A stretch of DNA of 64,000 nucleotides from Pirellulaceae bacterium (GTDB lineage: Bacteria; Planctomycetota; Planctomycetia; Pirellulales; Pirellulaceae). Under the pieces are notes generated by a model that had not been told where the DNA came from, did not search any database, and was given only the letters and a program-made list of their open reading frames with translations. Within the stretch, counting starts at the first letter, position 1; each line of letters starts with the position of its first letter. The stretch covers positions 25,689-89,688 of the forward strand of contig JBGTJE010000103.1 of the NCBI GenBank assembly GCA_041745295.1, read 5' to 3'. The position numbers were made by a program, and so were the translations under genes. Shown one piece after another: positions 27,242-57,409 of the stretch.

Positions 27242-27271
27242 GAACGAATCAGTTCACTTTTACGTGCTTCT

Positions 27272-30657: not shown

Positions 30658-30670
30658 GCGCCGGATCGCC

Positions 30671-34543: not shown

Positions 34544-34696
34544 TCACAAACGAGAAACTTGGGTTCCGCAGGCTTGAGTTTAATTGCCGATCCAAGCTCG
34601 CACAATGTTTGCAAGTACTTCCGCTTTGTACTTTGTACAGAATCTCTGTTAAAATGCGGAGAACAGGGGCGTCCGTACCGGATTTGACGACGGCAC

Positions 34697-35794
34697 ATGA
34701 TCTGCAAGCAGGGAATCTCACTCATCGGGCTGATCATTGCGGCCCCATGGTTCGCTCAAACCAGCGACGAATCGTGGCACCGAAATAGCGAATTGCAGAA
34801 AGCACTCGCGGCTCAGCTGGAAATTCACTCGTCCAGCGAATCATTGCGCTCGTTCGTTTTACGACTCTCGCAAAGCCAACGCGTCGCTGTCTTTTTGGAC
34901 CGAAGGCTGGATCCGACCACGCCCCGCGACTTTACATTGCATGGTCGGAGCCTGAAGTCGATTCTTTACTTAGCGGCCGCGCAAAGTGGCGGCGGCGCGA
35001 GTTTGTTTGCCGACGCCATTTACATCGGCCCGGGGGACGTAGTCGCCGTTTTGCCCGAGGCGCTGACGACGCTTCGTACTCGAGTAAAATCCCTGCCGCC
35101 GGAATCCAGAAAAGTTTGGCAACGGGCGGAAGCGTGGCAGATGGCTCGCCTCAGTCGGCCCGCAGACCTCGTAAAGCAACTGGCCGCCGACCACGAATTG
35201 AACGCGATGGGTATCGAAAAAATCCCTCACGATCTTTGGCCAGAGGTCGACCTGCCGCCGTTATCATTGGCCGAAAAATTCGCCTGCATACTCTTGGGAT
35301 TCGGCTTGTGGCCCGAAATCTCGGCGGATGGAAAAGCGGTTCGAATCACCGAATTTGTAGTACCCGAAACGATTACGCGAACGCATTCGAGCCAGCCACT
35401 CGGTGAATTTACTTCCTGGTTGCGCGAGAACTTCCCCAACGCCCAGGTCAAAAAGAAATCGTCGAGCCTTGTCATTACAGCACCTCCCGCCGACCATCAT
35501 CAAATCGCCCTTTGGTTGGCCGAACACGAAACGCCAAAAAAAGCGGCCTCGCCCGCTGCCAAAAAAGTCGTCACTTTGAACGCCACGGCGACGGCTGGAA
35601 ACATCGCCACTCAAGTCGCCGCGCAATTGGGGGTCGAGCTGGTTTGCGATCCCAAATTGCAGAAGCAATTGGAAACCCGCGTCGAGATTCACGTCGAGCA
35701 AGTAACGTATCCTGAACTATTGAGCAAGGTTTTCGCCGACACCGGATTGTCGTTTCAGCTCGATGACCGACAATTGCGGATCTTCGCCAAATAG
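34697..35794 (+). CDS. Hypothetical secreted protein (365 aa)
   Basis: Signal peptide MICKQGISLIGLIIAAPWFAQT. No recognisable motifs. Confidence 0.5.
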   Translation: MICKQGISLIGLIIAAPWFAQTSDESWHRNSELQKALAAQLEIHSSSESLRSFVLRLSQSQRVAVFLDRRLDPTTPRDFTLHGRSLKSILYLAAAQSGGGASLFADAIYIGPGDVVAVLPEALTTLRTRVKSLPPESRKVWQRAEAWQMARLSRPADLVKQLAADHELNAMGIEKIPHDLWPEVDLPPLSLAEKFACILLGFGLWPEISADGKAVRITEFVVPETITRTHSSQPLGEFTSWLRENFPNAQVKKKSSSLVITAPPADHHQIALWLAEHETPKKAASPAAKKVVTLNATATAGNIATQVAAQLGVELVCDPKLQKQLETRVEIHVEQVTYPELLSKVFADTGLSFQLDDRQLRIFAK

Positions 35795-35821
35795 ACGGTC
35801 CGCTTCTTAACTTCGTTTGAC

Positions 35822-35893
35822 GCCGAGCCGAAGGCGACGGCCCAACTCCGTAACACGGGGATGGCGTCGCCTACGGCTTGCCGTTAAACAACC
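35822..35893. repeat. GC-rich palindromic repeat, same family as 12352..12412 and 27184..27241
   Basis: gccgaaggcgacg / cgtcgcctacggc, a 12/13 inverted repeat. The reverse complement of 35864..35893 matches 12352..12380 at 23 of 25 positions (GTTTAACGGCAAGCCG..GGCGA). Confidence 0.55.
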
Positions 35894-35934
35894 GCGACGC
35901 GATTTGAGCAGACCTATTACTCGATGCATCCAAC

Positions 35935-37485
35935 ATGAACGCGATCGAAACCGCCTTTCGCCAACTTTGTCAGCACTCCAGCGACACCAAAAAGCTTTCG
36001 ACGACCCAAGCCCTCTTGGAATGGGATCAGCAGACCTATCTTCCCCCAGCGGCGGGTGAATACCGGGCCGAACAGGTTAGTTTCTTGGCGGGGTTCATTC
36101 ACCAACGTCAAACCGATCCGCGAGTCGGTCATTGGCTCGACGAGCTCGTTGGCTCGGACCTTGCCCGGGACCGCGCCACTGCGTCCGGTGCCTCGATCTT
36201 TCATTGGCGCCGCCAATTCGAAAAACAAACAAAACTCCCGCAAGCATTGGTCGAGGAACTTGCCCGGACGTGTTCCCTGGCACAGCTGGTTTGGATTGAA
36301 GCCCGTCGGGAAAACGAATTTAAGAAATTTTCGCCTCACTTGGTTCGCATTATTGAACTGAAGCGACAGCAAGCTGATGCGATTGGCTTTGCCGAATGCC
36401 GCTACGATGCGTTGTTGGATGACTACGAGCCATTGGCCAAGACGAGCGAAATCAGCGAAGTCTTGGCGCGGTTGCGGCAGGAGCTTGTTCCACTTGTGCG
36501 GCAAATCGCGGCGGCCCGCGGCGGTCCCGCGGCGGATTTGTTGCATCGACATTTCCCGCGCGGCAAACAAGAGGAATTGGGAAAAACCATCGCCGCGGCG
36601 ATCGGCTTTGACTTTTCACGCGGCCGCTTGGATACGACGAGCCATCCGTTCTGCACGGAATTGGGAAAAGACGACTGTCGCATAACTACGCGCTACGACG
36701 AGTCTTTTTTCTCGAGCTCGTTTTTTGGCATTCTGCACGAAGCAGGACACGGGATGTACGAACAAGGCCTGCCGAGGGACGAATACGGTTGGGCCAGCGG
36801 CGATTATTGCAGTTTGGGAATCCATGAGTCTCAGTCCCGCTTGTGGGAAAACCTCGTCGGCCGCAGCCGTGGATTTTGGGAGTTCGCGTTTCCGCTCGTC
36901 CGCGCATCGTTTCCAGAGGCCGTATCGGATCTCAAACCAGAGCATTGGTACGCGGCCGTCAATCAGGTCCGCCCCAATCTGATCCGTGTCGAAGCCGACG
37001 AAGCGACGTACAACATGCACATCATCATTCGGTTTGAACTGGAACAAGCCCTGCTCGATGACCGGTTGGCGGTCACCGATTTGCCGCAGGCTTGGAACGA
37101 CGCTTACGAACGGGATGTCGGCATTCGGCCGTTAACCGATTCGGATGGTGTCCTGCAAGATATCCACTGGAGCGCGGGTCTGCTCGGCTATTTTCCGACG
37201 TATTCCCTTGGAAATATTTACGCCAGCCAATTGTTTGAGCAGGCCGGCAAGGAATTAGGTAATTTGCCTACGGCGTTTGCCAAAGGTGAATTTCGCCCGT
37301 TGCGCGAGTGGCTGCGAGTCAATGTTCACAATCTCGGCAATCGGTACTCGTCCCAAGAACTGATCGCAAAAGTCACCGGCCGGACGATGGACATTCGGCC
37401 TCTGATCAATCATTTGCGCAGCAAACTCCTGCCGATTTACGGATTGTCTGGCGATGCTCACGCGGAATGCGCGGATCGTCCCTAG
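35935..37485 (+). CDS. Carboxypeptidase Taq-like M32 zinc metallocarboxypeptidase
   Basis: HEAGHGMYEQG (HExxH), DYCSLGIHESQSRLWEN, IRVEADE.TYN.HII.RFELE, and YSLGNIYASQLF are typical M32 signatures. 516 aa. Confidence 0.85.
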   Translation: MNAIETAFRQLCQHSSDTKKLSTTQALLEWDQQTYLPPAAGEYRAEQVSFLAGFIHQRQTDPRVGHWLDELVGSDLARDRATASGASIFHWRRQFEKQTKLPQALVEELARTCSLAQLVWIEARRENEFKKFSPHLVRIIELKRQQADAIGFAECRYDALLDDYEPLAKTSEISEVLARLRQELVPLVRQIAAARGGPAADLLHRHFPRGKQEELGKTIAAAIGFDFSRGRLDTTSHPFCTELGKDDCRITTRYDESFFSSSFFGILHEAGHGMYEQGLPRDEYGWASGDYCSLGIHESQSRLWENLVGRSRGFWEFAFPLVRASFPEAVSDLKPEHWYAAVNQVRPNLIRVEADEATYNMHIIIRFELEQALLDDRLAVTDLPQAWNDAYERDVGIRPLTDSDGVLQDIHWSAGLLGYFPTYSLGNIYASQLFEQAGKELGNLPTAFAKGEFRPLREWLRVNVHNLGNRYSSQELIAKVTGRTMDIRPLINHLRSKLLPIYGLSGDAHAECADRP

Positions 37486-37570
37486 AGAATGCAACGCGAG
37501 ATCGCGTTTCGTGTTCTTTGCGTTTAATAAATAGGAGAATAGGGCAAGCACGGTGCTGACATCCAACTTA

Positions 37571-39817
37571 TTACTTGAACGGCGCACCGGGTTTCCGCGA
37601 CGAGAACCACAAAGCGCCTATTGCGACGACGGCCACTCCCAACGCAGCAATGAGCCACGGCCAGGGAAGTTGATCGCCTTTGAGCGGGAACCAATCGAGC
37701 CCTTGTAGGTCTTCGTTCAAGTACGCGAGACTTACAAGCGTCGCATTGTTCAGCATGTGCAAGAAAATTCCTGGGATCAGGGAACCGGTGCGCCAACAGA
37801 CCAAGGCTAATAACATGCCCATCAAAGTGGTTGGGATAAACCGATCGAACGCGATGACGCTTTGGGTGAGCAAATGAAACGCACCAAAAATAATCCCCGA
37901 GATCACGATCGGTCCAACCGCGGTCTTGCTGCGGGAGAGAAGCGAGCGCAGAAGAAAGCCGCGAAAGAACCACTCTTCGGCAATCGCGGGAATGACGGCG
38001 TGAGTTAATAGAATCGCCCCAAGCGGTAATTCGCGCCACCGCCTCACGTAACCTTCGCTTGCACCGATCACGCGTTGTTGCCAGGCTGCACCGGATTCGA
38101 CGCCGCCAAACCAAATGACCAACTGTTCGGTAATCGAGACGGACAAAATGGCCAGCGGCCAAGCGGTGAGGCCCACGACAATGGCGGCCAACAGGGGAAC
38201 GAAGCCGGGCCAGCGGAGCGCAAACCCGGTCGCGATGCGAACCCGTTGATGCCAGGCAAACAACAATGGAACTCCGATAAAGAAGAGAACCGTGACGATC
38301 GAGAGGATGACCAACGGAAGACGGATATCTTCATCGGCAATTCGGCTGATCACGGAAATCGCCACGAAGTTGGCGGGGAACAAGCAGGTCAAACAAAAAA
38401 TCGCCGCCAGCGGCGACGCCGTTTCCTGCGGATGCTTGGGACGCCGCAACGAATCCTGAATACTCGTGTGGCTACCGTAGAGAATCGCGTCGGTGCCGAA
38501 GATCCGCGCGGCGATCGCGATCGCCAACACCGCGTACAACAATGTTGAAAGGATCGCGACGATCGCCGGTGCCGTGGCAACTTGGCCATGTAAAATGTCC
38601 CGGGCAAGCAAAACGAAGTTGAGTAATGGAACGAGGCAAATGGGTCCGCTCAACGATAGGTCCGGTGCCAAGCTGACGACGCCGGGTGCGAGCGACAGCA
38701 AGATCAGCGGAATCAGGTAGGCTTGGGCTTCTTTAAAGCTGCGGGCGAAACTGGTTACCGCCAACAGCACGGCGGAAAAAAATGCCGCAAATAATAGCAA
38801 CAGCCCAAAGACTTGTGCGACCGACACGAAGGAGAACTTTCCCGATTCGAATATCATCCCTTCTAAGCGAAAGGCCCAAATCGTCGCCAGCATCCCGATC
38901 AAGTTCAGCGTTGCCGTAAGCATCGCCACGGTTAACACCGCGACGAACTTAGCAAACAAGATCCGCATGCGCGGAATCGGCGCCGCGACGAGCGCCTCCA
39001 TCGTTCCCCGTTCTCGCTCGCCCGCCGTGAGGTCGATCGCTGGATAGACCGCCCCTGTGATCGTCATCAGTACCAAAATGAACGGGATCAACGTCGCAAA
39101 GGAGATCGCGGGTTTTGCTTTTTGCCGCGCGATTACTTCTGTGGACTGGACCAGGAAATCCATTTGGCCCAAGACTCCACGCCGCTGCATTCGATAGCGA
39201 TTGACCGATTCGAGGTAGTCGCGCATATACTCGGCGGCTTGGCGCGAGAGCGCACTGTTGACGTTGGATACGATTTCGATGGTCGGCGGAGCGCGCGTTT
39301 GGGACCTGGAATTCGGCCGCTTCGCCAGGGAGTTGGCCACGTCGAAATGCACGGTGACTCCAGCATCCACCGTTCCCGCAGCTACCCCGTTCGAGACAAA
39401 ACTCCAATCGTTTTCGGCGCTCGGTTCTGAGAATTCGTGTTCGACGAATTTCGCAATGGACGGGGACGTACGATTGAGGTGTTTTTCAATGAGCGTGGCC
39501 TTTTGTTCCTCTAAAAGTCGAACATCCTGCATGAACTCGTCGAACCAGCGTGCGAATTCGTTTCTCGGTCCTCGGTAGTCGATTGCGAAGCGATATGTAA
39601 GCGGTTTGTCGCCGGACGCTGCAATCACTCCGGTCAACAAAAACGTACGAAATATCAAGCTGAGGATTGGATAGACCAAGAGCGGCATCAACAGCAGCGT
39701 GATCACAGTGCGACGATCGCGCAGCGTTTCGCGGAGTTCCTTTTGGGCCAATCGACCCAGCCGCGCAAACTCAAATCCCGACCAGGAACGTCGAGGCCCC
39801 ACCTGCCCCTGTTTCAT
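37571..39817 (-). CDS. ABC-2-type transporter permease fused to a C-terminal CPBP (CAAX/Abi) intramembrane metalloprotease domain
   Basis: Six or more TM helices with a large extracytoplasmic loop after TM1. C-terminal CPBP motifs EEWFFRG, FGAFH and HMLNN. The start was taken at the ATG (39817) that forms an ATGA overlap with the upstream ATPase stop. The ORF-finder start at 39838 is a GTG. Confidence 0.75.
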   Translation of the reverse strand: MKQGQVGPRRSWSGFEFARLGRLAQKELRETLRDRRTVITLLLMPLLVYPILSLIFRTFLLTGVIAASGDKPLTYRFAIDYRGPRNEFARWFDEFMQDVRLLEEQKATLIEKHLNRTSPSIAKFVEHEFSEPSAENDWSFVSNGVAAGTVDAGVTVHFDVANSLAKRPNSRSQTRAPPTIEIVSNVNSALSRQAAEYMRDYLESVNRYRMQRRGVLGQMDFLVQSTEVIARQKAKPAISFATLIPFILVLMTITGAVYPAIDLTAGERERGTMEALVAAPIPRMRILFAKFVAVLTVAMLTATLNLIGMLATIWAFRLEGMIFESGKFSFVSVAQVFGLLLLFAAFFSAVLLAVTSFARSFKEAQAYLIPLILLSLAPGVVSLAPDLSLSGPICLVPLLNFVLLARDILHGQVATAPAIVAILSTLLYAVLAIAIAARIFGTDAILYGSHTSIQDSLRRPKHPQETASPLAAIFCLTCLFPANFVAISVISRIADEDIRLPLVILSIVTVLFFIGVPLLFAWHQRVRIATGFALRWPGFVPLLAAIVVGLTAWPLAILSVSITEQLVIWFGGVESGAAWQQRVIGASEGYVRRWRELPLGAILLTHAVIPAIAEEWFFRGFLLRSLLSRSKTAVGPIVISGIIFGAFHLLTQSVIAFDRFIPTTLMGMLLALVCWRTGSLIPGIFLHMLNNATLVSLAYLNEDLQGLDWFPLKGDQLPWPWLIAALGVAVVAIGALWFSSRKPGAPFK

Positions 39818-40602
39818 GTCCGCTCCTTGGACATCCACGACTCATCGACCGGACGCGCCAACAACGAATCGCCCTCGGGGCGGAGTAGTCCGATGAAAAT
39901 GTCAACTAAGTTTTCGTGTCCCGTTTGCTGTTGAAGTTGCGGCATCGTTCCCTCATGCACCAAGCGCCCTTGGTGAATCAAGCCAAAGCGTTGGCAGACG
40001 TGCTGGGCTTGTTCCAATCGATGCGTGCACAAGATAATGGCCTTGTTCTCGCGGCAGAGCATTTGCATATAGTCAAAGATGATTTGGCTGCCGACCACAT
40101 CCAGGCCCAGCGTCGGTTCGTCCAAGAGCATGATCGGCGGGTCGTGCATGAGGGCTCGAGCCAAGTTAATTCTTTGTCGCTGTCCGGTGCTCAGCGTCGC
40201 ACTCCGCTGATCCAAATACGGATGGATAGCCAGCAAATCGCCCAAGCGTTCGACTTGCTGCTGTATCCGCCCGTAGGGCAATCCATAGACGTCGCCAAAA
40301 AAGCTGAGTATTTCCCGCGCCGTGAGCCATTGATAAGTTCCGGCATTCGCCGAGACAAATCCAACGCGGCGCTTGATTTCGTCGGCTGAAATATCGGAGC
40401 GAATCGTGTCGATTTCGGCGTAACCGGAGTCGGGTTGCAACAAACCCAGGATCATCCGCATGGTCGTGGTCTTGCCGGCGCCGTTGGGGCCCAAAAGGCC
40501 ATAGATTTCCCCCGGGCGAACCTCGAATGAGACGTTGTCCACGGCTTGAATCGTCTGATCATACGTCACGAATTTCTTGCAAAGTTCGACGACGCGGATC
40601 AT
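39814..40602 (-). CDS. ABC transporter ATP-binding protein
   Basis: Walker A GPNGAGKTT, signature LSTGQRQR, Walker B LLDEP. The start was taken at MIRVVELCKKF (ATG at 40602). Confidence 0.85.
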   Translation of the reverse strand: MIRVVELCKKFVTYDQTIQAVDNVSFEVRPGEIYGLLGPNGAGKTTTMRMILGLLQPDSGYAEIDTIRSDISADEIKRRVGFVSANAGTYQWLTAREILSFFGDVYGLPYGRIQQQVERLGDLLAIHPYLDQRSATLSTGQRQRINLARALMHDPPIMLLDEPTLGLDVVGSQIIFDYMQMLCRENKAIILCTHRLEQAQHVCQRFGLIHQGRLVHEGTMPQLQQQTGHENLVDIFIGLLRPEGDSLLARPVDESWMSKERT

Positions 40603-43549: not shown

Positions 43550-45556
43550 TTGATGAGTGAACTTCCGCCGAACAATTCAAACGACCCTGAAGCAAAGCCG
43601 GGAAAGCGACCCAGACCCGGACTGGGTTGGGGTTTAATGTTCCTATTGACGATGGCAGTTGCGTTCATGCTGTACCTGAACTGGGTTCAGATGCCATCGA
43701 AAATCAGCTTGTCGTATCTGGAGAATTTGATCGAAGGCAAGGATTTTCAGGGGAATGTAATCCTCGGTGTCGACGGCAAACCGGTCGGACCCAATATCGA
43801 TCGTCTTCAAATTGTCGGCGAGCAGGCGTACGGCGTTTTCAAAGTCATTCCGCCGGCGGAGCCGACGTTTGACACGGAGGGGACGATGGTCCCCAGCACA
43901 CGCCCACTCAAGAAGCAGTTTACCGTCCAGATTCCCAGCCCCAACTCGCAGGCCGGCGCGAATTTGTACGATCGGCTGCGGGCCAAAAATATCTCGGTCG
44001 AAAAGGAACAACAGTCTGCTTATGACCTGACTTCGATCATTATTTTGGCAATGATTTTCATCCTGCCGATCGTGATCATGTTTTACTTGTTGCGGCGGAT
44101 GCAGAATCAGGTCATGGGGGGTGGAAACTTCCTTTCAAATTTTTCGCGTAGTCCGGCCAAGCGGTTCGAACCCTCGGATAAACGCGTAACGTTTAGCGAT
44201 GTTGCCGGGTTGGACAATGTCAAAGGAGATTTGTTTGAGATCGTGGACTATTTGCGCGATCCCAAAAGGTTTCAGCGGCTCGGGGGCCAGATCCCCAAAG
44301 GCGTGTTGCTATTTGGACCACCCGGTACAGGCAAGACATTGATGGCTCGGGCGGTCGCCGGCGAAGCTGGCGTTCCGTTCTTCAGCGTGAATGGCTCGGA
44401 GTTCATCCAAATGTTTGTGGGCGTCGGAGCAAGTCGCGTCCGTGATTTGTTCGCCAGCGCCAAAAAGCAAGCTCCTGCCATCGTATTCATCGATGAGATT
44501 GACGCCGTCGGGCGCCAGCGCGGCGCGGGCTTGGGCGGCGGTCACGACGAGCGCGAGCAGACGTTGAACCAGATTCTCGGCGAAATGGATGGCTTTCAAA
44601 AAAACGAATCGGTCATCGTCTTGGCGGCGACGAATCGCCCCGACGTGCTCGACCCTGCGTTGCTTCGGCCCGGGCGTTTTGATCGCCACGTCATGGTATC
44701 ACGCCCGACGCAGTCTGGGCGTTTGGCCATTTTCAAAGTCCACGTGCGCGACGTCCCGCTTGCGCCAGACGTCGACTTAGAGGTCATGGCCAGCGCGACC
44801 TCGGGATTGACCGGCGCGGACATCGAGAACTTGGTCAACGAAGCCGCGCTGTGGGCAGCCCGGCACGACAAGAACCAAGTCGAAATGAAGGATTTCTATT
44901 ACGCCCACGACAAAGTGCTGATGGGCGCGCGGCGCGAGGAGATTCTCAGCGAAAAGGAGAAACGACGGACTGCATTCCATGAATCGGGACACACCATGGC
45001 GGCTTGGTATTTGCCCGGCGCACTGCCGGTCCACAAGGTCACTGTGATCCCGCGCGGGCACACTCTGGGAGTGACGCAGATGACGCCGTTGGAAGATCGG
45101 CTCAATATTTCGGAAAACGAGTTGCGCGATCAGCTCATCGTGGCGCTGGCCGGCCGCGCGGCGGAACAGCTGGTTTACGACGAGCTTACGGTCGGCGCTG
45201 AAAACGACTTGGAACAAGCCACGAATATCGCCCGCCGGATGGTGACCCATTGGGGAATGAGCGGTCGCCTCGGTCCGGTTAGCTTCAAGATGTCGGATGA
45301 GGATCCGTTTCTGGGGCGCGAGATTCACAAGAATCGCCAATTCAGCGAACACACGATGGAGCTGATCGACGACGAAGTCACGAACATCTTGCAGAACGCC
45401 GCCAAGGCGGCTTATCAATTGCTGGCCGATCGCCGAGAAGCGCTCGATCGGTTGGCCGAGCAATTGGTCAAGTCGGAAGAACTCGATACCAAAGTACTGG
45501 AGACCATCCTCGGTCCGTCGGTGCACAAGCGCGACGCCAATGGACAATACAAGTAG
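43550..45556 (+). CDS. ftsH: ATP-dependent zinc metalloprotease FtsH
   Basis: Two TM helices, AAA Walker [12 protein letters not shown] motif, and zinc site HESGHTM. 668 aa. Confidence 0.95.
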
Positions 45557-45568
45557 AAAGATGGGCGG

Positions 45569-48500
45569 TTAATTTATTTGCTCGACACTAGTTCGAACGA
45601 GCACGTCTTCCAGCAGGCTGACAAAATACCAATCCTGGTCGCTGCCGCCAAACAGCGCGTCGCGGGCGCCGTCGTCCTGCACGCTGACGCCGTGTTGCAA
45701 AAAGATTGGCGTGTCTTCGAGGACCGGTCCGTTGCCGTCGCGGATGTTCGTCACGCGTTCCGAATAGCCGCGGCTGGACGTCCATTCAGCCAGGATGGCC
45801 GTCAGGGCAGACGCGCTTTGGTCATGCGAAGTCGTTCCAGCGATGAGCAGATCATCGTTCCAATGGCCTAACAGCGTATCGCCGCCCCTCCCACCGATCA
45901 GGATGTCGCGGCCGTGACTCCCGATAAGCGCATCGTCGCCGAGTCCCCCGAGCAGAATGTCGTTCCCCTGATTGCCGTACATCTCGTCGTTGCCCGTGCC
46001 GCCATCGAGGCGGTCGTTCCCTTTGCCGCCGCTGAGTACGTCATTGCCCGCACCACCAAATAGGTTGGCGGCTTGGACGATGCTTGAATGGACGATAATT
46101 TCGTCGTTGCCGGCCAGTCCGAACGCTGCGATGCGATCGAATTGGACAAACTGAGCCTCCCCGATCACGATGTTGTTTCGCTTTACGAAGACAATGCCGT
46201 CGTCGCTTGGTTTAACGAATCGGATCCGGTCGTCGTCTTTCGTTCCAACCACAACCCAAACGTTTTGCCCGGGATTTTCCGGATCGGGAAGAAGACGCGA
46301 GCCGCCTACGGGGACTCGTTCAAGAGAGACGCGATAGTCTTCGATTTCGCCGTCAGGGGCCGATCCTGTCGGTCCAAGTCCGCCGTCGGTGCTAAGGCGA
46401 AAGCGAGCGTAGCTGGTTCCGGTGCGCGCGCTGGCTGGGACGGTAAACGTGACCGTATTCGCACCGGCCTGTACGGCCAGTCCGGTCGCGATTTGCTCCG
46501 CGGCTTCAAAGATCCCATTCCGATTGAAATCGATCCAGGCGTCTAGCCTACCGACTTGCGATGCGGTTACTATTGCCGCTGCATTGAGCCGGGCAATGAG
46601 GGCGCTCGGCAGCGCAACGCCGTCTTCGTCGCCTGGCGTACCGGCGAGATCATCGCCGTCGGCCAAAAGACTGGGCTGGCCGTCAGTCTCGCCGTCACGC
46701 TGGCTTCCCAGTCGCAGGTCCGAGCCCGATAGGTGGACCGCCCCGTCACTTGTCAGCAGTGTCCCGTAGCTATCCGGCGCGTCGCCAAAATCCCCTTCTG
46801 TGGCGACCAAGACCACGGTCGTCGTGGCGTCTGCCTCGGTAGGCAGGTCCTCGCTGTGTCCCACGTTGTCCGTTGCCGCGCTAATGAAGGCATAAGCGTG
46901 GCCAGCAGCGCCGGTAAAGATCGCGGAAGACTCGGTTGTGTCGAGTAAAAATGGCGAGAAGGCTCCGCCGTCGACCGAAACGAAAATGTCGAAGAACGAA
47001 ATGCCCGAGCCATTTGGATCATCGTTGCCGGTCCAATTCACCGCGAAAGTTTCGCTGCCGGTCGTGGCCGGAAGTGGATCGACATTGCTCGTCGGCGTGC
47101 CGGCGTCGATGGTGTTGAAGATCGCCGGCGTGTCGATCGCGGCGTTCACGTCGAAGACGATGCTGGCCTGAGCGTCGATTCGTGTTCCGGTTGGCAGGCC
47201 CGGTTTTGGCCGCACGATGTACGTGACGAAGCCTTCCCCTTCCGGCGGGATCTGGTTGGGGGGCAGGAAGCCGATGTCGCCCTCCGCGTCCGTCGGTATT
47301 TCCAGCGTCGCCGGGTCGAGCGACGTGAAAGTCCAGGTGATGACGCCGGTCTCGAAGTTGAGGTCGCCGCTAACGTCGAGAAAGAGGTTTCGATCGGGTC
47401 GAAGATCATATCGCCGCAAGAAGGAGCTGCGCTTGGCCGGCAGATTAACGAGACTCGAGCCGATGCCGAAGCTGAACAACTCAAAGGTCGCCAGATCGAG
47501 ATCGGGATCGAGCGTCTGCGTGACAACGACCGTCTGGGCCGGCGCCGTCGCCGCCACGTCGTTTTCGAAGCGGATCGTATAGAAGAGGGACGAATCCGCC
47601 GGTAGGAAACCTTCCGGGCCGAAGCCCGCCGGTCCGATGATGTCGTTGGGGTCGTGGGCAAAGACCTGGAGGATTTCAGCTTCGTCGACTTCCTCGCCGG
47701 GAGGCGGCGGGAAGTCGTGATCGGGGTTGAAGCAGTCGAAAAAGTCACAGAGATTCCATAGAGCATAAAGGGGCGGGAATTGTGAACCAACGTTAATACC
47801 AACTGGTGAATCCGGGTCCAACGCTACGATCAGCGCCAGAGGGTTAATGGACAGCAACGGGTTTGCAGTGACGAGCGTGTCCGCCGCGTCGAACGCAGCC
47901 GCCTCCGCATCAATCAACTCAGCCTCGGCCAGCGCAGCTCTAGCTTCGGCCAGCTCAGCGGCCTCAAGTTTAGCCAAAGCCTCCCTTCCTGAGGGTGTCA
48001 GTTTATGGCCAAGCTCCAAAGCCTTTCGGGCTACTTGGCCGGCAATGGCTTCCCTAGCATGTTGGATCCCGCCCTTCGCAACGCCGCCAATTACGCGTAT
48101 GAAAACTGGCACTAGTGTCGGCGACAAGCCTGACGGGTCAATGTAGTTCACAGGATCGTTCGTGACGTAGCCGTAAAGATTAAGGCCGCCGGCGATGCCG
48201 ATCGGATCCTCATTGATGTAGCGCCCATCGTCCGAGGAGTAGTACCGTGCCCGCATGAAATCCAGCCCGTTGCCATCTCGCTGGACGCCGAACTGGCCGA
48301 CGAACTCGAACGGGTTGGCGATCGTTTCGCTGATCGTGAGCGCCTCGCCGAAGGGCAGATAGCTGTATTGGTTCGCAATGACGCCACTGGCGTCCGTCAT
48401 CGCCACGGTCGAGCCAACGCCGTCGAAATCGTAGAACGCCGCCGCTCCGCCGGAATCATGCCGGCTGACCAGACCGAAGCCGCCGTGGACATAACGGGCG

Positions 48501-51500
48501 ATCAGATTGCCGCCGGTGTCGTATTCGGCGACGACATTCGTCAGGCCCAGTGGGTCGATGAGGTACTCGGTGCGAACGCCTCCATCGACTTTGGCGACGC
48601 GATTGCCCAGCGCGTCGTATTCGTAACCGACCCTGAGCACTCCATCGACCCAGCTCAGCAGGCGGCTCTCATCGTCGTAGGTATAGGTCGTGCCGCCTCC
48701 GGCTTCATCCGTGATCAGGTTGCCGTCCTTATCGTAGGTTCGGTCGAACGAACCGATCCGCTCGTACTGGTTCAGCTTGTTGGTCGTGTAGTTGGTCGGA
48801 GCGCCATTGTCGATCACCGCCGTGCGGTTGCCAACGGCGTCGTACTGATACTGAATAATCCGGCTGTCGGGGAGTACGACCAACGTCAGTTGCCCGATGG
48901 CGTCGTAGCCGAACGTCGTCAAGCCTTCCAACGTCGTGACGCTCGTCCGCCGGCCCAAGTCGTCATAGGTGTAATCGAACCGCGAACTGACGGTGCCATC
49001 GGGAAGATGATTCACCAGGCTCGTAAGCTGGCCTGCGTCATCGAACCCATACGTGGTGAACGTGAGGTTGCCGTTGTCTTCGCGGCTGAGCCGCCCGACC
49101 GAGTCATAGGTGTAGAGAACCAGCCGGATGTCCGAGCCGTCCGTCAACTCACCAATTCGGCCGGCTGCGTCGTATCGGTACTGGACGATGAAACCGGATT
49201 GGTCTTCGAGCCGGATTCTCCGCCCGCCGGCGTCATATGTGTATTGGAGGAAGCGGGCATCGGGGTACGTCACTTTGGTCAAACGATCCGCGGCGTCGTA
49301 GTCGAACGTCGTCGTCCCGGCTTCATCGGTCGCCGTCCGCAGGTTGCCCCGGTCGTCGTAGGTGAACACCTCAAACGTGCCGTCGGCGTGGTCCTTGCGG
49401 AGCAGGAGGCCGCGGTCGTCGTAGGCGTAGTCGATCACCTGGATGCGGCGGTTGATGGATTGCGTGATGTTGCCGTCGGCGTCTGGCGTGACCTGCTCCA
49501 CGGAGCCGTCCACGTGGATGATGCCCGTCAGATTGCCCTGGGCGTCATAGGTGTAGCGGAGGGGGATGCTGCCCTCGTCGCGAATCGTGGTCGGCAGGTT
49601 GAACGTGGTGTCGTAAGTGAAGCTGAGCGAACGGCCGTCCGGCTTCACGACGAACGTGAGATTGCCGTTGCCATCGAAATCGAAGAGTGAGACCGTATCG
49701 AGCGGTTGCGTCACGCGGTCGAGCCGATGCAGAGCGTCGTAGTCGAACCGCGACGAGCGGTCGAGCGCATCGCGCGTTTCCAGGAGTTGGCCGAATTCAT
49801 TGAAGAAGAGCGACGTGGTCTTGTTGAAGGCGTCGGTGATGAAGACTTCGCCGACGCTGCCATAAGCCAACGTCACGGCTTCGGCGTTTCCGTCACGGGA
49901 GGAGCCGACGAGCCGGCCCTGGGCGTCGTATTCATAGAAAACGTGCGTCTCGTCGGGCGTACCGTCGGCTCGCGTCACCGAGGTCAGCGCGTGCTCCGCC
50001 GACGAACCGGCAGTCGTTTCGTAGGTATACGCGATCGTGCTGTCGGGGCCGGTGACGCTCATCAAGTGCTCGCCGGCGGCATCGTATACAAACGTCGTGA
50101 GCCGCCCAACCTGATCGGTGAGTTGGGCAAGCCGACCCGCGGCGTTGTAGCCAAAGACGAACTGGTCGCCGTTGGAGTGCGACAAGCTCACGAGCCTCCC
50201 GTCGTCGTAGTTCAGCGTGACCTGGTGCCCGTTGCGATCGGTTACGTCGAGCAGACGCCCCGTCACTTCGTCAAAGCGGCTGATCGTTCCATTGGTCTCA
50301 CGCAGCGAAAAAACACCGCTTGCCAGTGTGAGTTGAGCGTGATCGAGGAGCGAACTCCTGAAGAGGCCAGGGAAGAAGACCACCTCGTCGAACCGCCGCG
50401 TGCCGCCCGGCGTGCGGATCAGGACGTCGTTCGTGACCCCGTTGTCGTTCGGTACGCGCGACAGGCTGATGTCCCACGGGTCGGACCAGCCGCGGCCGAG
50501 GATGCCCATGTCAAAGCGCCGCGAGATCGTCGGGGCGAACGTCCGACCCCAGACCAGCGGCACCCCACTGGCGGGCGCGGCGGCGTCGATGGCCGAGTGC
50601 GGGCTGCCGCCCGGTAGTGCGTTATCCGCTTGCGCGAAGTGGACGCTCAGCAGCCGGTCAATGTCGGTCGTGTAAATCTCGTAGCGACTGAGATAAGTGG
50701 CGGCGTCCCGGAGCGCTTGCAGGTACGAGCCAACGGTCGTGCCGACTCGCGTGAGGAGGTTTCTGAAAACCACGTCCCACGCGGCGGGCGAGACGGTGGG
50801 CGGGCGCAACTCGTCCTTGTGCGAGGCCAGAGCGAAAGGCTTATCGTCCGGTCCGGCCTGGATCAGCCGGAACAGGAGTGGGTTACGATCCAGCGCGTCG
50901 AGATCCTCTATGAAGCGAACCTCCTGGAGTTCGTGGGTGCCCGGGGGAAGCACGCCCGCCGGGCCGGATGTGCTGGTCGCAAAAAACTGGATCACGTTTT
51001 TGGCAGGCGACTCTAAGTCTTCCGGTAGGGGCCGCGGCCCCTGGGGGGGGAGCGAAGTACCGCTGCCCGTAGACCCGCCTCCGCCACCGCCATCTCCGCT
51101 TCCGACTCTTATTTGTCTTGGGACTGGGGGGACGATGACATTGGCGTTTGGCGACTCGATCAGCAGCAGGGGTGCCGGAACGTCCGTCTCTCCGACGTTC
51201 GAATACTCGATGAACAGGCTATCCTCGCGGCCTCCGAGAGTCGTCGCCGCCGCAAACAGTCGAACTGCAAACACGCCGGGGTTCCCGGTCGTCACCGTGA
51301 ACGCGCTCGCCAACTCCGTCGAGCTGGCACCATCCACGGCGCGCACGCTGTAAGAGCCGGTCGCTAATCCCGCGAGATTGAACGTCACGAAAAAGGTCGT
51401 CTCACTCTGCTGCACGACGTTCGCCGCCGGCAGGCTACTCGCCTGACCCACCAGACTGAAGACGGTCTCGGTCGAGAAGCCGGTCCCGATAATCGTGGTC

Positions 51501-53821
51501 GTGACCTGTCCGACATTGCTGCCACGGTTGGGCGTAACTTGATTAATCTCCATCCCCACCGAATCGGCCGTGAGCGAGAAATGCCCGAGCGGCACGCCCG
51601 CCGTCGAGGTCCCGCGCACTCGGATGAAGGACGGAACCGGCGCGCCGGCCAGCGAGAACTCAGGGTTAGGATTGACGAACGCGACCACGCGCTCGAAGAA
51701 GTTGTTCGCATCCGGCAGGTCGCCCATGCGCACGAGAATCTCGCCCATTTGGGGATCCGTGAAATGGGCCGTCAGCCGGGCATTGGTCCCCGGCGGGACA
51801 TTCAGCCGGAACGTGAACTCCTGCCCTAGTAACAAATCTCGCTCGATCGTCGGGCCGTCCAATTCCAGGATCGAAGCGGCCCCGCTGACCGTTCGCGAAA
51901 ACTCGGAAGTGTCGGTCGGCACAGACGGCGTGGCTGAATTGGAGTCGTGGTCGAAAAGCAGCGTGGCGGTTGAAGTGACCTGTTGGTCCGGCGTGAGCAG
52001 CGCCGGCATTTCGGCGGAGAAGCTCACGTTGCCTGCCGAGTCGGTATGGACGATGGTCTCGCCGAGAAATGTCTGCCCCTCGCCAAAACCCGAAGGATCG
52101 GCCGCGTCGCTGGCGAAGAACTGGATCAAGAAATCGGTTTGCGCCATGCTGTTGAGCGAGCCGAAGATGGTCGAATCCACCGCGCTGCTCAGGACCTCGA
52201 CCAGAACCGGGAAATTTTGCCCGTTGTTGCCAATGAAGATGAAGTTGCCGGAGTGGTCGGCGTCGCCGGGGTCGTTGGCCGTCACACCGGCGGCGTTTTC
52301 GCTGCCTCCAGGCAGGTTAATTCCTAGGCGACCGTTGGCAAAGATGGAGTTTCCCAGGATGGGATACGAGCCAAGGCCACCAATCAGGATCCCGTCGTTG
52401 CCGTTGGAAAATATCGTGTTTCCCAGGATGGGCATCGGGTTACCGACCGAAACCCCAATCCCGGTGTTGAAAGCGATGACGTTCCCCGCACCGGGCGCCG
52501 TTCCGCCAACTTGGGAAGAAAGGGGAGAGCCCGATATACCGTGGCCAACGAAAGGGGAAGGACTGCCATTACCAAGCGGGCTAATGCCATCGGCTTGCGT
52601 GCCAATGAAGTTGCCCAACACCAAGATCCCCGACGAGGATCCCTGCCCCACGAACGTCTGGGCGCTGATTCCATTCCCCGGGTTGCCGGAAATGACATTG
52701 CGCGCGTGGACGATCCCGTCGAGCATCCCGTCGTCGTCATCGTCTCCTCCAATCATGATGTTTCCAGATACGAAGAAGGAAATGCCCCCCGCTCCGTTGC
52801 CGATCGCCACCGTGCCCGTCACGTCCGTGCCGATGTAATTGCCTTGGATGAAGAGGCCACTCTGGCGGGCGACATTTACGCCAAAAAAGCCATTGCCCGA
52901 GATGATGTTGCGCGCCCCGGCAACCGTCCCACCGATGACAGTTCCGCTGCTATCGATGTCTCCAATTCCCAAGCTCACGCCAGTATCCCCATTCCCCAGG
53001 TCTTGGGTGCCAGTGATGTCGGTGCCGATGAAGTTGCCTTGCACCTGGTTGAATTTGCCGTGGTTACTCCCCTCGACCCCGATTCGGTTGTTGCCCGAGA
53101 TGACATTGCGGGCGGCCGGTGTCGTCCCGCCGATCCGGCTGCTAGTCTCATTGAAATTGATGACCACACCGGAGCCGTTGTTGCCCAGATCAACCGTGCC
53201 GCTGGCATCGGTGCCGATGAGGTTGCCTTCGACCACGTTGCTGGTTGAAACCACCAAGTTAATTCCGTGTCCTGTGAAACGGTTGACGACCAGTCCTCGG
53301 ATCGTGCTGCCCCCCCCGCCGCTGATTGTCAGCCCATCCACGCTGCCGGCGCTGGTTCCATCAAGCTCGATTCGCAGCACCGTGTTGAGGCCCAGCAGGG
53401 ACTCGACCGAATTGGTGTTTATGCTGGTCCCTGGCTGCGTGTAGCCGTCGATGATCACCGAGCCGGTTATGGTCGGCAGGGCGGAGGTCGGGGCGATCGT
53501 TTGAACGCCGGAACCGGGGATATTGAAATTGATGGCGTCTGTCCCAACAGTCTCGTAGGGCTCCAAAGTCACCACGTCCGCATTGACGTTCGCGTTATTG
53601 TTCGCGGAAGTAATGGCCTCGCGAAGAGTCACCAGACCATCGACAGCGATTGTGTCACCGATGCCGGTAACGATGATCGTCGCAAGAAGTACGCGGTCTT
53701 CCAGCTGCTCGATTCCCGGTTGGTAATGCCGTGGTGCGGGGCGCCGCAATTGCGCGTCCGCGCGTTTTCGGAGCCGAAGAGATCTCGTGGAGAACCGCTT
53801 ACGTAATCTTGACCAATTCAT
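45569..53821 (-). CDS. Giant secreted multi-domain protein (2750 aa). It has an N-terminal LEDRVLLA motif, a CSLREA-like segment, parallel beta-helix repeats, Ig/IPT-like domains, RHS/YD repeats with an RHS core (DPxGL), a GEVED-like domain and C-terminal RTX repeats.
   Basis: [13 protein letters not shown] (CSLREA-like). Many NxIxGN/GTxxxGN beta-helix repeats. YD repeats (YDxxGRL, YTYDxxG). RHS core [74 protein letters not shown]. Its ATG overlaps the upstream kinase stop in an ATGA. Confidence 0.9.
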
Positions 53822-56763
53822 TGCTTACCCTTTTCTGATTCTTGACTCTTTAGCTCGTCGAACTTCTTCCGCCACTCGGCGGCCTTTTCTTCGTTGCCCG
53901 TCGCTTCGTAGAGTTGCGCCAATCTCTCGAGAGACTCTCGTAACCGCTGATCTCCATCCCGCTGAGGCGTCTTGGCTTCGACTTGTTTCAGCCCCTCGTA
54001 GCCGGCCAGCAACAGCGGTTCGGCCTCGGCGAATTTTTTCTGGCCGAGCAGACTGCCGCCGAGCACGGACTTGGTGCAAAAGGTGGCCCAGGCGTCTGGC
54101 TCCGTCTTCTCACGGATCGCCAAACACTCGCGCAGGAGCGGCTCGGCGTCGGCGGGCTTGTTTTGCGCCAGCAGGCTTGCTCCGATTGGGTGTAGTTCTG
54201 CAGCGTATTGCGGCGAGTCAGCACCGGCTTTCTCTTTCCAAAACGTGGCCAGTTCGCGCCAAATAAGTTCGGCTTTTTCCGACTGGTGCAATCTGTCGTA
54301 GCAGTCTGCCAAGTTTCGCATGTATGTCTGGGTGAAGGAGTGCTCAAGTCCAAGCTTGGCACGTGCTCCAGCGACTGCGTCTCGGAAAAGCGGTTCGGCC
54401 TCGGCCACCTGGCCCATTTCCCGGTAGTCAGTTGCCAGGTTGTTCATGCTGTTGAGCGTATCGGGGTGGTCGGGGCCGACCGTCGCTTTCCGCCTCTCCA
54501 ACGTCTCTACGTCGAGTGCCATTGCTTTGTCGAACTTGCCGGCGGCCTTATATGTTGCGGCGAGGTTGCTCATGCTGCCGAGCGTGTGGGGATGGTCGGG
54601 GCCAATCGCCACCCGTTGTTTTTCGAGCGCCTTTTCCAAGAGTGGCAAAGCTTGGTCGAACTTGCCGGCGGCTTGGTACGCGGTGGCCATATTGTTCATG
54701 CCGATAAGAGTGTTGGGATGGTCGGGGCCGACCGTTGCCAACAGTTTCTCCAGAGACTGTTCGCGAAGCGGCAGGGCTTTGTCAAGCTTGCCGGTGGCAT
54801 GGTACGCAGTCGCCACGTCGCTCATGCTGGTGAGCGTGTCAAGATGATCGGGGCCCAGCGTCGCTTTCCGCTTCTCCAGAGTCTGTTCCCAGAGTTGGCG
54901 GGCCTGATCGAGCTTGCCGGCGGCATAGTATGTCCCGGCTAGATCGTTCATGCTGGTGAGTGTGTCGGCATGGTCAATGCCGAGTGCCACCTTTCGCTTC
55001 TCTAGAGTCTGTTCGCCGAGCAGCAGGGCCTCGTCAAGCCGCCCGGCATCTACGTACGCCCAAGCCAGGTTGTTCATGCTGGTGAGCGTATCGGGGTGAT
55101 CGGGGCCAAGCTGCTCCAAACGGAGTTGTCGGCTTCGCTCGAGCTGCCGAGTGGCCAGCGCCGGTTCGCCCAGGTACAGGTACGATTCTCCCAATGAGTT
55201 GCGGATCGAGGCCTCAACGAGCGGCCTGTCAAGAAAGGCGGGAGCGATTTGTGGCTCGGCTGCGTCGACCGCCGCGCGAATGCTGGCGTCGATGCCCAAT
55301 CCACCGTCGAGATCCTCGGGCCGTGCCGCTGCCAGCACCTTCTCCTGGAAAAATTCAAGGACCGCGCGGGTGTCGGATTCTGACTCCTTCGCTCTGCGGG
55401 CCTCGTCGCGCGCCTTCGCCTCGCTGATCTTGGCCGCATCCTCGGCCGCGACGGCACGATTGCAGTCGTCGTTGGCCTTGCCTTCGGCAACGGTCGCGCG
55501 AACTGCCTGCCAGGCGCTGACCACGGCGCCGCTGACCAACAATGCCATAAAGGCCGCGGCCAACAGGACGCCGCTCTTATGTTTGTGGAAATATTTCCGG
55601 AATTTATAACCCGCCGACGGCGGACAAGCTTGGACCGGTTCGTCGTTCAAGTAGCGTTGCACGTCGGCCGCAAAGCCGTTGGCTGTCTCGTAACGATCGT
55701 TGCGGTCCTTTTCCAGCGCCTTCATTACAATCCAGTCCAGCTCGCCGCGGACCAACCTTGTTAGTTTGGCCGGCTCCGTTTGCCGCTGCGCCGAGATCGA
55801 CGCCAGGGCCTCACCCGAGTCCGAGAGCCGCGTGCTCGGCTTGGGAGGTTCCTCCTCCTTGATCATGCGGAGGATCTCGCCATAAGCCGCCTCCTTCATC
55901 CGCGAATGCGAGAGCGGCGTGCTGCCTGTCAACAGTTCATACAACAGGACGCCCAACGAATAAATATCGCTGCGAGTATCGACGCCCAGGGCGCTCATCT
56001 CCGCCTGCTCCGGGCTCATGTATTCAAAGGTGCCGACCATAGTTCCGTACTGCGTGAACAAAGTACGCTCGGTTAGCGTTTGCTCGGTCGCCTTGGCCAC
56101 GCCGAAGTCAATTACCTTGGCGACGGGCTTGCCGTCGTAAAGCGTGATCATCACGTTGGACGGCTTGATGTCGCGATGGATGATCCCTTTCTGGTGGGCG
56201 TGTTGAATTGCCTGGCAAACCGGCACGAACAGTTCCAACCGCTGGCGCGGCGTCAAGCGGTTGCCGTCGCAGTATTTAGTAATTGGCAGACCATGTACCA
56301 GTTCCATAACGAAGTACGGCCGGCCCGATTCCGTGGCTCCGGCGTCGAGCACGCGAGCAATGTTAACGTGATCCATCATCGCCAAGGCCTGTCGCTCAGC
56401 TTCAAAGCGGGCGATCACCTGGCGGCTGTCCATGCCTGGCTTGATGACCTTAAGGGCTACCTTGCGCTGCACAGGATGCGTTTGCTCGGCCATGAAGACA
56501 GTTCCCATGCCTCCTTCGCCGATTTGCTGCAAGAGCCTGTACGGACCGATGACTGTACCGGGGCGTTCTAGGGGGGACGAGTCGAGCGTTTCCACCCGGG
56601 ACAACACGTCCATGAAACTGCCGAGATGACCATGTTCAGACAGAAGTGACTCGACCCGTTGGCGCAATGAGGCGTCCCCCGCGCAGGCCTCATCGAGGAA
56701 GGCGGCTCGCTCGGCTGGACTCCCCTTGGTCAAGGCAGCAGTAAAGATTTCTCGCTCGGTCAT
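53818..56763 (-). CDS. Ser/Thr protein kinase with one TM helix and C-terminal TPR repeats (981 aa)
   Basis: [34 protein letters not shown] helix [17 protein letters not shown]. At least eight TPR units ([28 protein letters not shown], and so on). Confidence 0.9.
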
Positions 56764-56851: not shown

Positions 56852-57409
56852 TCATTCAGCAGCTATTTTTTGATGGAGCCAACTACGGGCATAGGCCCAG
56901 ATATCGTGCGCCGTTCGCACCGAGATTCCTAAGGCCTCGGCGATCTCGCTCATATTAAGGCCCACAAAGAATCGCAGTTTGACCAAATTGGCAGCCGCGG
57001 GGTCGATCTCGGCCAGTCGATCGAGAAGTTCGTCGACGGCCAGCATTTCTTCCGCCGGGCGATCCGTGCTGATCGCCGATTCGTGCAGTTCCTCGCGTTG
57101 CGCGTCGCCTCCACGTTTGGCCGCGCTTTTTCGACGGGCTTGTTCCACGAGAATCCGCCGCATCGCCTCGCCGGCGGCAGCAAAAAAATGCCCTCGGCTG
57201 TTCCAATGTTGAGCCTTCTCCACGTCCACGAGCCGGATATAGGCATCGTGTACCAGCGCCGTCGCCTGCAACGTCTGACCTGGCTTTTCCTGAGCCAGTT
57301 TCGCGGCCGCCAGCTTCCGCAGTTCGTCATAGACCAGCGGCAGCAGCTGCTCCGCCGCCGACGGATCGCCCGACTCGATCTGCGACAGGATGCGGGTGAC
57401 ATCGGACAT
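56852..57409 (-). CDS. ECF-type RNA polymerase sigma factor (sigma-70 family), kinase-associated type
   Basis: 185 aa. Region 2 (LVHDAYIRLVD) and region 4 HTH (LNMSEIAEALGISVRTAHDIWAYARSWL). The N-terminal MSDVTRILSQIESGDPSAAEQLLPLVYDELRKLA pattern is typical of ECF sigmas encoded next to Ser/Thr kinases. Confidence 0.8.
   Translation of the reverse strand: MSDVTRILSQIESGDPSAAEQLLPLVYDELRKLAAAKLAQEKPGQTLQATALVHDAYIRLVDVEKAQHWNSRGHFFAAAGEAMRRILVEQARRKSAAKRGGDAQREELHESAISTDRPAEEMLAVDELLDRLAEIDPAAANLVKLRFFVGLNMSEIAEALGISVRTAHDIWAYARSWLHQKIAAE

Follow-up and report, generated by a model that had tools for sequence, protein, structure and literature searches.

Rhs cages are understood as closed containers, each with a C-terminal toxin that is released into a target and with a paired immunity gene. 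What, then, is an Rhs cage that is followed by a tail of 851 amino acids (aa) and has no immunity gene beside it? This question is raised by a stretch of 64,000 nt from a Pirellulaceae bacterium (GenBank assembly GCA_041745295.1, contig JBGTJE010000103.1, positions 25,689 to 89,688), hereafter the window, in which one open reading frame (ORF) on the minus strand (45569..53821; ORF list and translation) encodes an Rhs protein of 2750 aa (290 kDa, computed pI 4.4). An earlier note on this DNA had reported an Rhs core with a DPSGL motif and the 851-aa tail, and had proposed either that a giant, adhesin-like protein has taken over an RHS shell or that the C-terminal payload is very large. Here, we suggest, with about as much belief as doubt, that the gene product is a secreted or surface protein that would combine a self-cleaving cage, a caged and interchangeable segment of ~150 aa, and an external, Ca2+-stiffened adhesin arm.

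The Rhs cage and the variable segment behind it

The predicted cage occupies aa 1076-1899 (48125..50596, minus strand) and was delimited using Pfam, NCBIfam, AlphaFold2 (AF2) and Foldseek. Twelve stretches matched PF05593 RHS_repeat (E = 4e-62) and 11 matched TIGR01643, and a DUF6531-like match at the start of the cage (aa 1076-1128) scored 23.7 bits in Pfam, below the cutoff of 24.1 bits. TIGR03696 (Rhs_assc_core, NCBIfam) spans aa 1821-1899 with its full model (1-76/76, E = 1.8e-20), and the Rhs-associated core terminates exactly at IDPSGL, of which DPSGL is aa 1895-1899. As the earlier note had it, the motif string lies at 48125..48208 and the post-core tail is exactly 851 aa long (aa 1900-2750, 45572..48124, 89.2 kDa). 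In the AF2 model of aa 1076-2250, the shell had a predicted local distance difference test score (pLDDT) of 80-95. Foldseek searches with the cage model returned the Rhs cores 8QJA, 7Q97 and 7PQ5 of type VI secretion systems (T6SS) as top matches, with E-values down to 3e-51, followed by the bacterial teneurin-like protein 9IFO, teneurins and TcB-TcC.

The core also carries the residues of the aspartyl autoprotease, namely the conserved Arg R1859 and the Asp residues D1872 and D1895 (DPxG…DPxGL). When 36 relatives bearing a DUF7619 domain were aligned, R1859 and D1872 were each kept in 35/36 and D1895 in 36/36. Because the three residues are present and conserved, self-cleavage after L1899, between L1899 and S1900, is likely. 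Judged from sequence and model, aa 1076-1899 appear to form a genuine three-layer Rhs cage that is protease-competent. PAAR, VgrG, prePAAR or other T6SS markers had no Pfam match in the 2750-aa protein or in the window ORFs scanned, namely every listed ORF of at least 250 aa in 1..40000 plus those next to the Rhs gene.

Directly behind the predicted cleavage site lies an orphan segment at the position of a toxin, hereafter the slot (aa 1900-2056, 47654..48124, minus strand; 157 aa, 16.5 kDa). It starts moderately hydrophobic and continues with an Ala/Glu-rich helix, a hydrophobic stretch (Kyte-Doolittle maximum over 19 residues, KD19, of 1.78 at aa 1983-2001), a Cys pair (LCDFFDC) and an acidic/Pro-rich run. 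AF2 predicted long helices at pLDDT < 50, and Pfam matched no family. The earlier note had called this region a helical linker; helices are indeed predicted, and what it overlooked was the most informative part, the toxin position and toxin-like length. When the 157-aa slot was searched alone, no homologs were found in two very large protein searches, though the closest paralog, P0007, shares the slot and is its only known relative. Since these searches missed P0007, the Ala/Glu-rich composition probably suppressed the scoring.

Comparison with homologs indicated how this segment varies. Between the window protein and P0009, identity was 65% up to DPSGLS, aa 1901-2038 were unaligned, and high identity resumed from PPPGEE…DPNDIIGP. 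In at least 61 retrieved proteins, an intact core motif was followed by 66-251 aa (median 147) and then by the DPN…FEN sequence that opens DUF7619, and the 64 slots, the window's included, fell into 53 BLASTP clusters. Slot lengths in the family ran from 62 to 306 aa (median ~147). The slot was replaced wholesale between homologs with 65-80% identical flanks. At the sequence level, it behaves like a polymorphic, hypervariable cassette at the normal toxin position and of toxin-like length. P0007 has the same slot and DUF7619-FN3 (60% identity, BLASTP); its homology stops at tail aa ~440, the C-terminal edge of FN3, beyond which it has cadherin-like domains and a dockerin and not GEVED and RTX. 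The distal end is therefore also exchangeable.

Such a segment need not be a cargo. The cage could be purely structural or adhesive, a bulky scaffold as in metazoan teneurins, with aa 1900-2056 as an inert plug or spacer that evolves fast through weak constraint and with no effector delivered. We consider this explanation unlikely, although it has to be taken seriously: only adhesin folds occur in the tail, an immunity gene is absent, neither a domain nor homologs were found for the window slot, giant surface proteins of non-Rhs type carry the DUF7619 module as well, and teneurins provide the precedent. However, the protease residues are kept in 35-36 of the 36 relatives, whereas teneurins lost them, slot lengths cluster about toxin size with a median near 147 aa, and one would expect hydrophilic, low-complexity sequence in a free spacer. 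Compared with 57 equal-length control segments drawn from the shell, slots were instead enriched both in transmembrane (TM)-like 19-mers (KD ≥ 1.6; 24/64 slots versus 0/57 controls) and in segments with at least three glycine-zipper motifs (29/64 versus 3/57). In addition, some slots are conserved families with invariant His and Cys. Five slots form one such family, with an invariant His and the Cys of NCQxW (HExYFFDDG…NCQxW); it gave a single marginal LRAT match (E = 0.011) and only noise in a PDB profile search, and an 'LRAT/NlpC-like' reading of these five slots may serve as a lead, not as a finding. When 44 slots of the family were scanned against Pfam, five matches of one member each resulted, one to Lnb_N (E = 1.6e-5) and four to coiled coils. 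PLA2-like motifs were seen in P0138 and P0147, by eye only. On this family-level evidence from sequence, we tentatively prefer effector cargo over a plug or anchor, although the slot of the window protein itself offers only weak evidence of activity.

The protein is not an oddity but belongs to a large clade. The search for homologous tails gave 340 proteins at E ≤ 1e-5, and a profile scan of species-representative genomes gave at least 429 loci that encode the DUF7619 module. Among the 120 tail matches listed, many have RHS repeats and TEN_YD-shell together with DUF7619 and differ in the domains at the distal end (in tail homologs, dockerin, cadherin-like, Calx-β, Big and RTX), and the majority of the closest Rhs shells found in the cage search bear DUF7619. 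Hosts of the module include Planctomycetota, Cyanobacteria (Calothrix, Nostoc, Trichodesmium, Microcystis and Prochloron), Burkholderiales, Verrucomicrobiota, Chloroflexota, KSB1 and others, and the best matches among the module loci listed came from a Planctomycetota metagenome-assembled genome (MAG; 81%) and a Pirellulaceae MAG (75%). The Rhs-adhesin architecture is not a product of chance, since the E-values lie far beyond chance and it recurs in dozens of independent proteins. Another class with very long tails was seen in cyanobacterial (Calothrix/Nostoc) Rhs proteins (P0193, P0195, P0211, P0215 and P0221), whose core ends near aa 590-600 and whose tails of 1100-1230 aa contain PF26745 and RTX.

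We also considered that the gene might be an artefact, either an assembly chimera or an Rhs toxin fused to an adjacent adhesin gene through stop loss. The closest orthologs, with 74-79% cage identity, lend this some colour: in two long-read metagenome assemblies (L001, 3556..12709; L086, 6821..14547), they are split into 4-6 consecutive ORFs, either by frameshift error or by pseudogenisation. However, the continuous order of core, slot and DUF7619 is shared by at least 61 independent proteins, whose origins cover many phyla and data sources, and the split-ortholog fragment with DUF7619 (P0007) still starts with YD repeats, Rhs core and slot. Because this fragment spans YD repeats to DUF7619, the splits look like frameshifts and not like gene borders. 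An artefact is thus barely credible, and an assembly chimera was rejected because the architecture recurs across proteins.

The distal arm and its proposed place outside the cage

The rest of the tail, aa 2057-2750, consists of a series of domains, all encoded on the minus strand. The first is a CnaA/CLIPPER-related, Ig-like DUF7619 domain (PF24595, E = 7e-19; aa 2057-~2240, 47102..47653), which is a CnaA-like β-sandwich in this protein and begins with an invariant DPN motif; D2057 and P2058 are invariant in the aligned relatives. The FN3-like β-sandwich that follows (aa ~2241-2340, 46802..47101) was identified by AF2, with strands at model residues 205-297 (pLDDT > 90), and by Foldseek matches to FN3, and it is conserved jointly with DUF7619 in homologs. 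Next is a GEVED region (aa ~2341-2500, 46322..46801) with a PF20009 core at aa 2426-2498 (E about 1e-18 to 8e-18), which confirms the GEVED-like assignment of the GEIEDYRV segment in the earlier note; GEIEDY is encoded at 46334..46351, and the N-terminal acidic loops of the region were poorly modelled by AF2. A β-sandwich cap (aa 2501-2567) and an RTX β-roll (aa 2568-2651) together occupy 45869..46321 (HemolysinCabind, E = 4e-12). Where five or six RTX repeats had been reported, we counted eight GGxGxDxUx nonapeptides, seven contiguous at 45869..46057 and one more at 46094..46120. The C-terminal ~100 aa (aa 2652-2750, 45572..45868) comprise two helices and extra β-roll turns (AF2 helices at model residues 631-656, strands at 683-702), and the sequence of this cap (…EW…Y…RV…GGSDQDWYF…) is common to other RTX-ended homologs (P0018).

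The AF2 model of aa 2040-2750 had a mean pLDDT of 83.7 and resolved, in order, a β-sandwich, FN3, GEVED, a second β-sandwich, the β-roll and the helical/β cap. Foldseek searches with this model against the PDB returned AgI/II C-terminal domains, BcpA, SpaD, CbhA FN3 and SiiE, together with CLIPPER and RTX folds, and no enzymatic or pore-forming toxin fold. Neither Pfam nor NCBIfam gave a toxin family in the tail, and structure prediction for aa 2040-2750 thus bore out its description as non-toxin-like. DUF7619 has been described as a CnaA-like relative of DUF11/CLIPPER in Gram-negative surface proteins and as a fibrillar-adhesin domain (PMC12617251), and GEVED is also a fibrillar-adhesin domain (PMC10952558). 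On sequence and model, aa 2057-2750 are likeliest to be a Ca2+-stiffened adhesin-like arm. The proposal of an RHS shell within an adhesin-like giant protein therefore held for the bulk of the tail, from aa 2057 on, and missed the slot at aa 1900-2056.

An isopeptide-stabilised stalk was set aside. In ten aligned sequences, the first β-strand of DUF7619 (YTI-R-FEN) has R, H, N or S, never K, at the expected isopeptide Lys position, which was placed by analogy with the triad table of PMC12617251 and without a reference alignment to a proven bond.

The DUF7619 module extends beyond Rhs proteins. When 67 module loci were parsed, ~27 had YD repeats upstream in the same ORF and ~40 were other giant surface proteins. 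Since ~40 of the 67 loci are without YD repeats, the module is not Rhs-specific; as read from sequence, DUF7619 and the Cys-pair, acidic/Pro and DPN prefix before it make up a module of surface proteins in general, which was acquired by one clade of Rhs proteins. In the non-Rhs loci L010, L012, L014, L015, L016, L021 and L044, in which about 330 aa upstream of the DPN motif were viewed, a Cys pair and an acidic/Pro-rich run always stood before the module (for example, PEECCDDDPKNDPPPPPP and VCDEPDEMPCDDD). The Asp-Pro-Asn at the DUF7619 border is invariant. Non-Rhs partners of DUF7619 include a GHSLG lipase with cadherin-like repeats (Prochloron) and β-propeller-like repeats (Burkholderiales, Verrucomicrobiota and TA06).

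Where the arm lies relative to the cage can be approached through volumes. A three-turn Rhs core encloses ~25,000 Å3, and its core end lies well inside the container (bioRxiv 10.1101/2024.02.26.582050). We computed ~108,000 Å3 for the 89.2-kDa tail and ~19-20,000 Å3 for a slot of 15.7-16.5 kDa. The tail is thus about fourfold larger than the cavity, and a 16-kDa slot would fit. These values bear on the possibility that the cage encloses all 851 aa of the tail as one exceptionally large payload, as the earlier note had alternatively proposed. Although the tail starts at the canonical cleavage site and some Vibrio Rhs toxin domains reach ~38 kDa, a payload of ~108,000 Å3 would have to enter ~25,000 Å3, and the tail is composed of β-sandwich and β-roll domains that were modelled with confidence and are characteristic of stalks outside the cell. 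A whole-tail payload is thus very improbable and was rejected on volume.

The folded tail should then lie outside the cage, while its first residues must start inside, because the core end lies within the container. In teneurin-2, a post-core internal linker of ~126 residues runs within the shell, the chain exits via a gap in the wall, and the C-terminal domains are outside the shell (PMC5851990). By analogy with this precedent and from the size argument, a teneurin-like layout with the slot caged and the arm outside appears likeliest.

We propose the following mechanism. The three-layer Rhs cage (aa 1076-1899), with its protease-competent core, probably cleaves itself after L1899. Just aa 1900-2056, an orphan, helical and hydrophobic cargo slot of ~150 residues, would be held within the cage, after which the chain would exit. 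Outside, ~700 residues would fold into the DPN-opened DUF7619 domain, FN3, GEVED, the β-sandwich cap, the eight-repeat RTX β-roll and the C-terminal cap, and this arm would bind a surface or another cell. The caged segment, still covalently attached to the arm after cleavage, could be a shielded membrane-active or effector peptide; its minimal role would be that of an anchor that ties the cleaved arm to the cage.

Several observations weigh against this proposal. The slot was modelled at pLDDT < 50, so the topology rests on inference, and a cut between L1899 and S1900 seems counter-productive, since only physical trapping of the slot would then keep the arm from coming off. The window slot has no glycine-zipper motif, a single borderline, proline-containing hydrophobic 19-mer, no domain recognisable by Pfam, and P0007 as its sole relative; just 1 of the 44 family slots scanned with Pfam matched an enzyme-suggesting family (Lnb_N). 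Furthermore, the DUF7619 module with its Cys-pair and DPN prefix occurs in ~40 of 67 loci that lack YD repeats. An immunity gene was found neither here nor, as a conserved gene, in six homologous loci, which would be unusual if the slots were antibacterial toxins.

A more speculative extension, which we think improbable, is that the Rhs-DUF7619 clade is a contact-dependent delivery device, in which the cage holds a short, interchangeable and often membrane-active peptide and the arm acts as a rip-cord. After cleavage, the peptide would be joined covalently only to the external arm, and binding of the arm to a target would draw the cargo from the cage and onto the membrane of that target. The cassette would be flanked by two recombination handles, the Rhs core and the Cys-pair/DPN/DUF7619 module, and could be swapped without an immunity gene because the producer would at no time contain the free peptide. 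Conditional cleavage might even occur at a second site, the invariant Asp-Pro on the edge of DUF7619. Were this reading correct, the clade would stand, as a living form, between Rhs toxins and adhesion receptors of the teneurin type.

Gene neighbourhood, immunity and export

To the downstream side, the Rhs gene converges with ftsH (43550..45556, plus strand; Pfam AAA and Peptidase_M41), which sits where an immunity gene would lie. The earlier note was right about the convergent ftsH, and the 13 bp it gave between the two genes is a spacer of 12 nt (45557..45568). With ftsH convergent and 12 nt away, an immunity gene is impossible downstream in the window, as had been noted, and no co-directional ORF follows the Rhs gene there. 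Six homologous loci with gene calls (L001-L005 and L086) likewise had no conserved co-directional small gene. Downstream of the Rhs gene, they have genes in convergent orientation, a gene with DUF1501, a reverse transcriptase of a group II intron, an amidase gene and, in one locus, a 230-aa uncharacterised ORF; none of these neighbours is conserved across loci. A second RHS, DPN-motif or RTX sequence was looked for elsewhere in the window and was not found; orphan cassettes are thus absent.

Directly upstream lies a gene for a Ser/Thr kinase of 981 aa with eight TPR_10/12 repeats (53818..56763, minus strand; Pfam Pkinase and TPR_10/12), with a 4-nt overlap between its stop codon and the start codon of the Rhs gene. 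Because of this overlap, the two genes are probably co-transcribed. An extracytoplasmic function (ECF) sigma factor is encoded upstream and co-directionally (56852..57409, minus strand; Pfam Sigma70_ECF, PF07638), and it or the kinase may control the Rhs gene. In a distant Rhs-DUF7619 locus (L002, 1..2926), Pkinase and sigma70_r2 genes are also found less than 6 kb upstream. The window encodes a further Ser/Thr kinase of 1322 aa, fused to a long WD40 β-propeller array (159..4127, plus strand), so that two large eukaryote-like kinases, one with TPR and one with WD40 repeats, occur within 64 kb.

The GC content is 0.60-0.64 over the Rhs gene (46001..52000) versus 0.53-0.58 in most of the window, which is compatible with horizontal acquisition or with a Gly/Ala/Asp-rich composition. 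The neighbourhoods of L001 and L086 are unlike that of the window, and synteny with ftsH is absent. In L004 (3195..4451) and L005 (3675..4841), the Rhs-DUF7619 gene is interrupted by a DDE transposase gene or has one immediately before it, and in one of the two loci it is followed by a group II intron reverse transcriptase. These arrangements hint that Rhs-DUF7619 genes lie in mobile or rearranging regions.

The N-terminal region (aa 1-1075, 50597..53821, minus strand) was described from its translation and is Pfam-negative, with no family at E ≤ 0.001. Its N-terminus is highly basic and carries an LEDRVLLA motif, and Gly/Asn/Ile-rich repeats and Ig-like stretches follow; a classical hydrophobic signal peptide was not seen in the translation. 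The Gly/Asn/Ile-rich repeats resemble a parallel β-helix, and the ortholog fragment in L086 has a faint Beta_helix match. The missing signal peptide would suit a type I secretion system (T1SS)-secreted RTX adhesin with an Rhs passenger, in which the C-terminal RTX block and the terminus itself would be the T1SS signal, export would proceed C-terminus first, and the cage would fold outside. Several homologs are also RTX-ended. However, many homologs that share the cage, slot and DUF7619 have a dockerin, cadherin, Calx-β or other domain at the C-terminus, and RTX is therefore not required for the family. In addition, the window ORFs scanned yielded small ABC ATPases and a type II secretion system (T2SS)/type IV pilus-like cluster, but no gene for a T1SS ABC transporter and none of HlyD or TolC type. 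This route, which we regard as doubtful, concerns export only and could be combined with either the cargo or the structural reading of the cage.

The T2SS/type IV pilus-like cluster (14987..24521, minus strand) lies ~25-30 kb from the Rhs gene. It comprises a secretin (14987..17086), T2SSF (17692..18894), two T2SSE ATPases (18909..20414 and 20411..21616) and an N-methyl pilin-like gene (23646..24521), all on the minus strand.

Comparison with known systems and significance

With canonical Rhs/YD toxins (T6SS RhsA, Tse5, RhsP and Tse15; 7Q97, 8QJA and 7PQ5), the protein shares a three-layer YD cage of ~820 aa, a core with the R…DPxG…x18…DPxGL aspartyl-protease motif, and a hypervariable segment of ~150 aa right after the cleavage site. 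In contrast to these toxins, the variable segment is internal here and is followed by DUF7619-FN3 and ~400 more adhesin residues; T6SS markers (Pfam) and an immunity gene are absent, and an N-terminal extension of 1075 aa matches no family. Rhs polymorphic toxins end in a toxin domain of ~15-38 kDa, whereas the post-core region here is 89.2 kDa and only its first 157 aa are toxin-sized.

Teneurins and bacterial teneurin-like proteins (TLPs; 6FB3 and 9IFO) have a YD shell with a post-core segment of ~130-150 aa and an adhesion-molecule context in common with the window protein, and a further likeness holds by analogy, as the teneurin-2 segment is inside the shell and its C-terminal domains are outside. 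Metazoan teneurins differ in having lost the protease residues, which are intact here. Bacterial TLPs keep the protease motif, but have C-terminal domains of ~15 kDa and immunity proteins, whereas the window protein has 89 kDa post-core and no immunity gene. The domains predicted to be outside are DUF7619, FN3, GEVED and RTX, not the ABD and Tox-GHH of teneurins. The TLP superfold is defined by FN-plug, NHL and YD-shell (PMC13018210). An NHL domain had no Pfam match in the 2750-aa protein at E ≤ 0.1, and we therefore do not class it as a TLP.

The tail resembles RTX and fibrillar adhesins (LapA, MpIBP and SiiE; CshA-type GEVED; CLIPPER-stalk) in its Ig-like stalk, GEVED and C-terminal Ca2+-binding RTX β-roll. 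However, its stalk domains are single-copy and not long tandem arrays, an Rhs cage precedes them, and T1SS genes such as accompany RTX adhesins were not found among the window ORFs scanned. Unlike CLIPPER-stalk adhesins, its DUF7619 has no Lys at the expected isopeptide position (placed by analogy). The TcB-TcC cocoon of Tc toxins is similar, in that it is built from RHS, encapsulates a hypervariable region and bears an aspartyl autoprotease at its C-terminal end, but it has four turns, consists of two proteins, encloses a cavity of ~37,000 Å3 and docks to the TcA translocator; TcA- or TcB-type elements are absent here.

Within the literature, which we covered incompletely, DUF7619 appeared only in the isopeptide survey, and RHS combined with DUF11/GEVED or with an adhesin/RTX tail was not described. 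We found no description of this architecture, an Rhs cage with an adhesin tail, which is common in Planctomycetota, Cyanobacteria and other phyla. To our knowledge, exit of the chain from the shell, with the C-terminal domains outside, has been seen in solved structures only for metazoan teneurins.

The finding means that a broad clade departs from the Rhs plan: cage and protease are kept, the variable segment is internal, an Ig-like module and interchangeable adhesin ends follow, and an immunity gene is absent. It makes testable how a polypeptide threads through an Rhs wall, what use autoproteolysis has when most of the product is outside, and how toxin cages turned into adhesion molecules. 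Hundreds of database entries named 'RHS repeat-associated core domain-containing protein' are probably not ordinary toxins. The clade would be a bacterial counterpart to teneurins, and it resembles a step from toxin cages to adhesion molecules.

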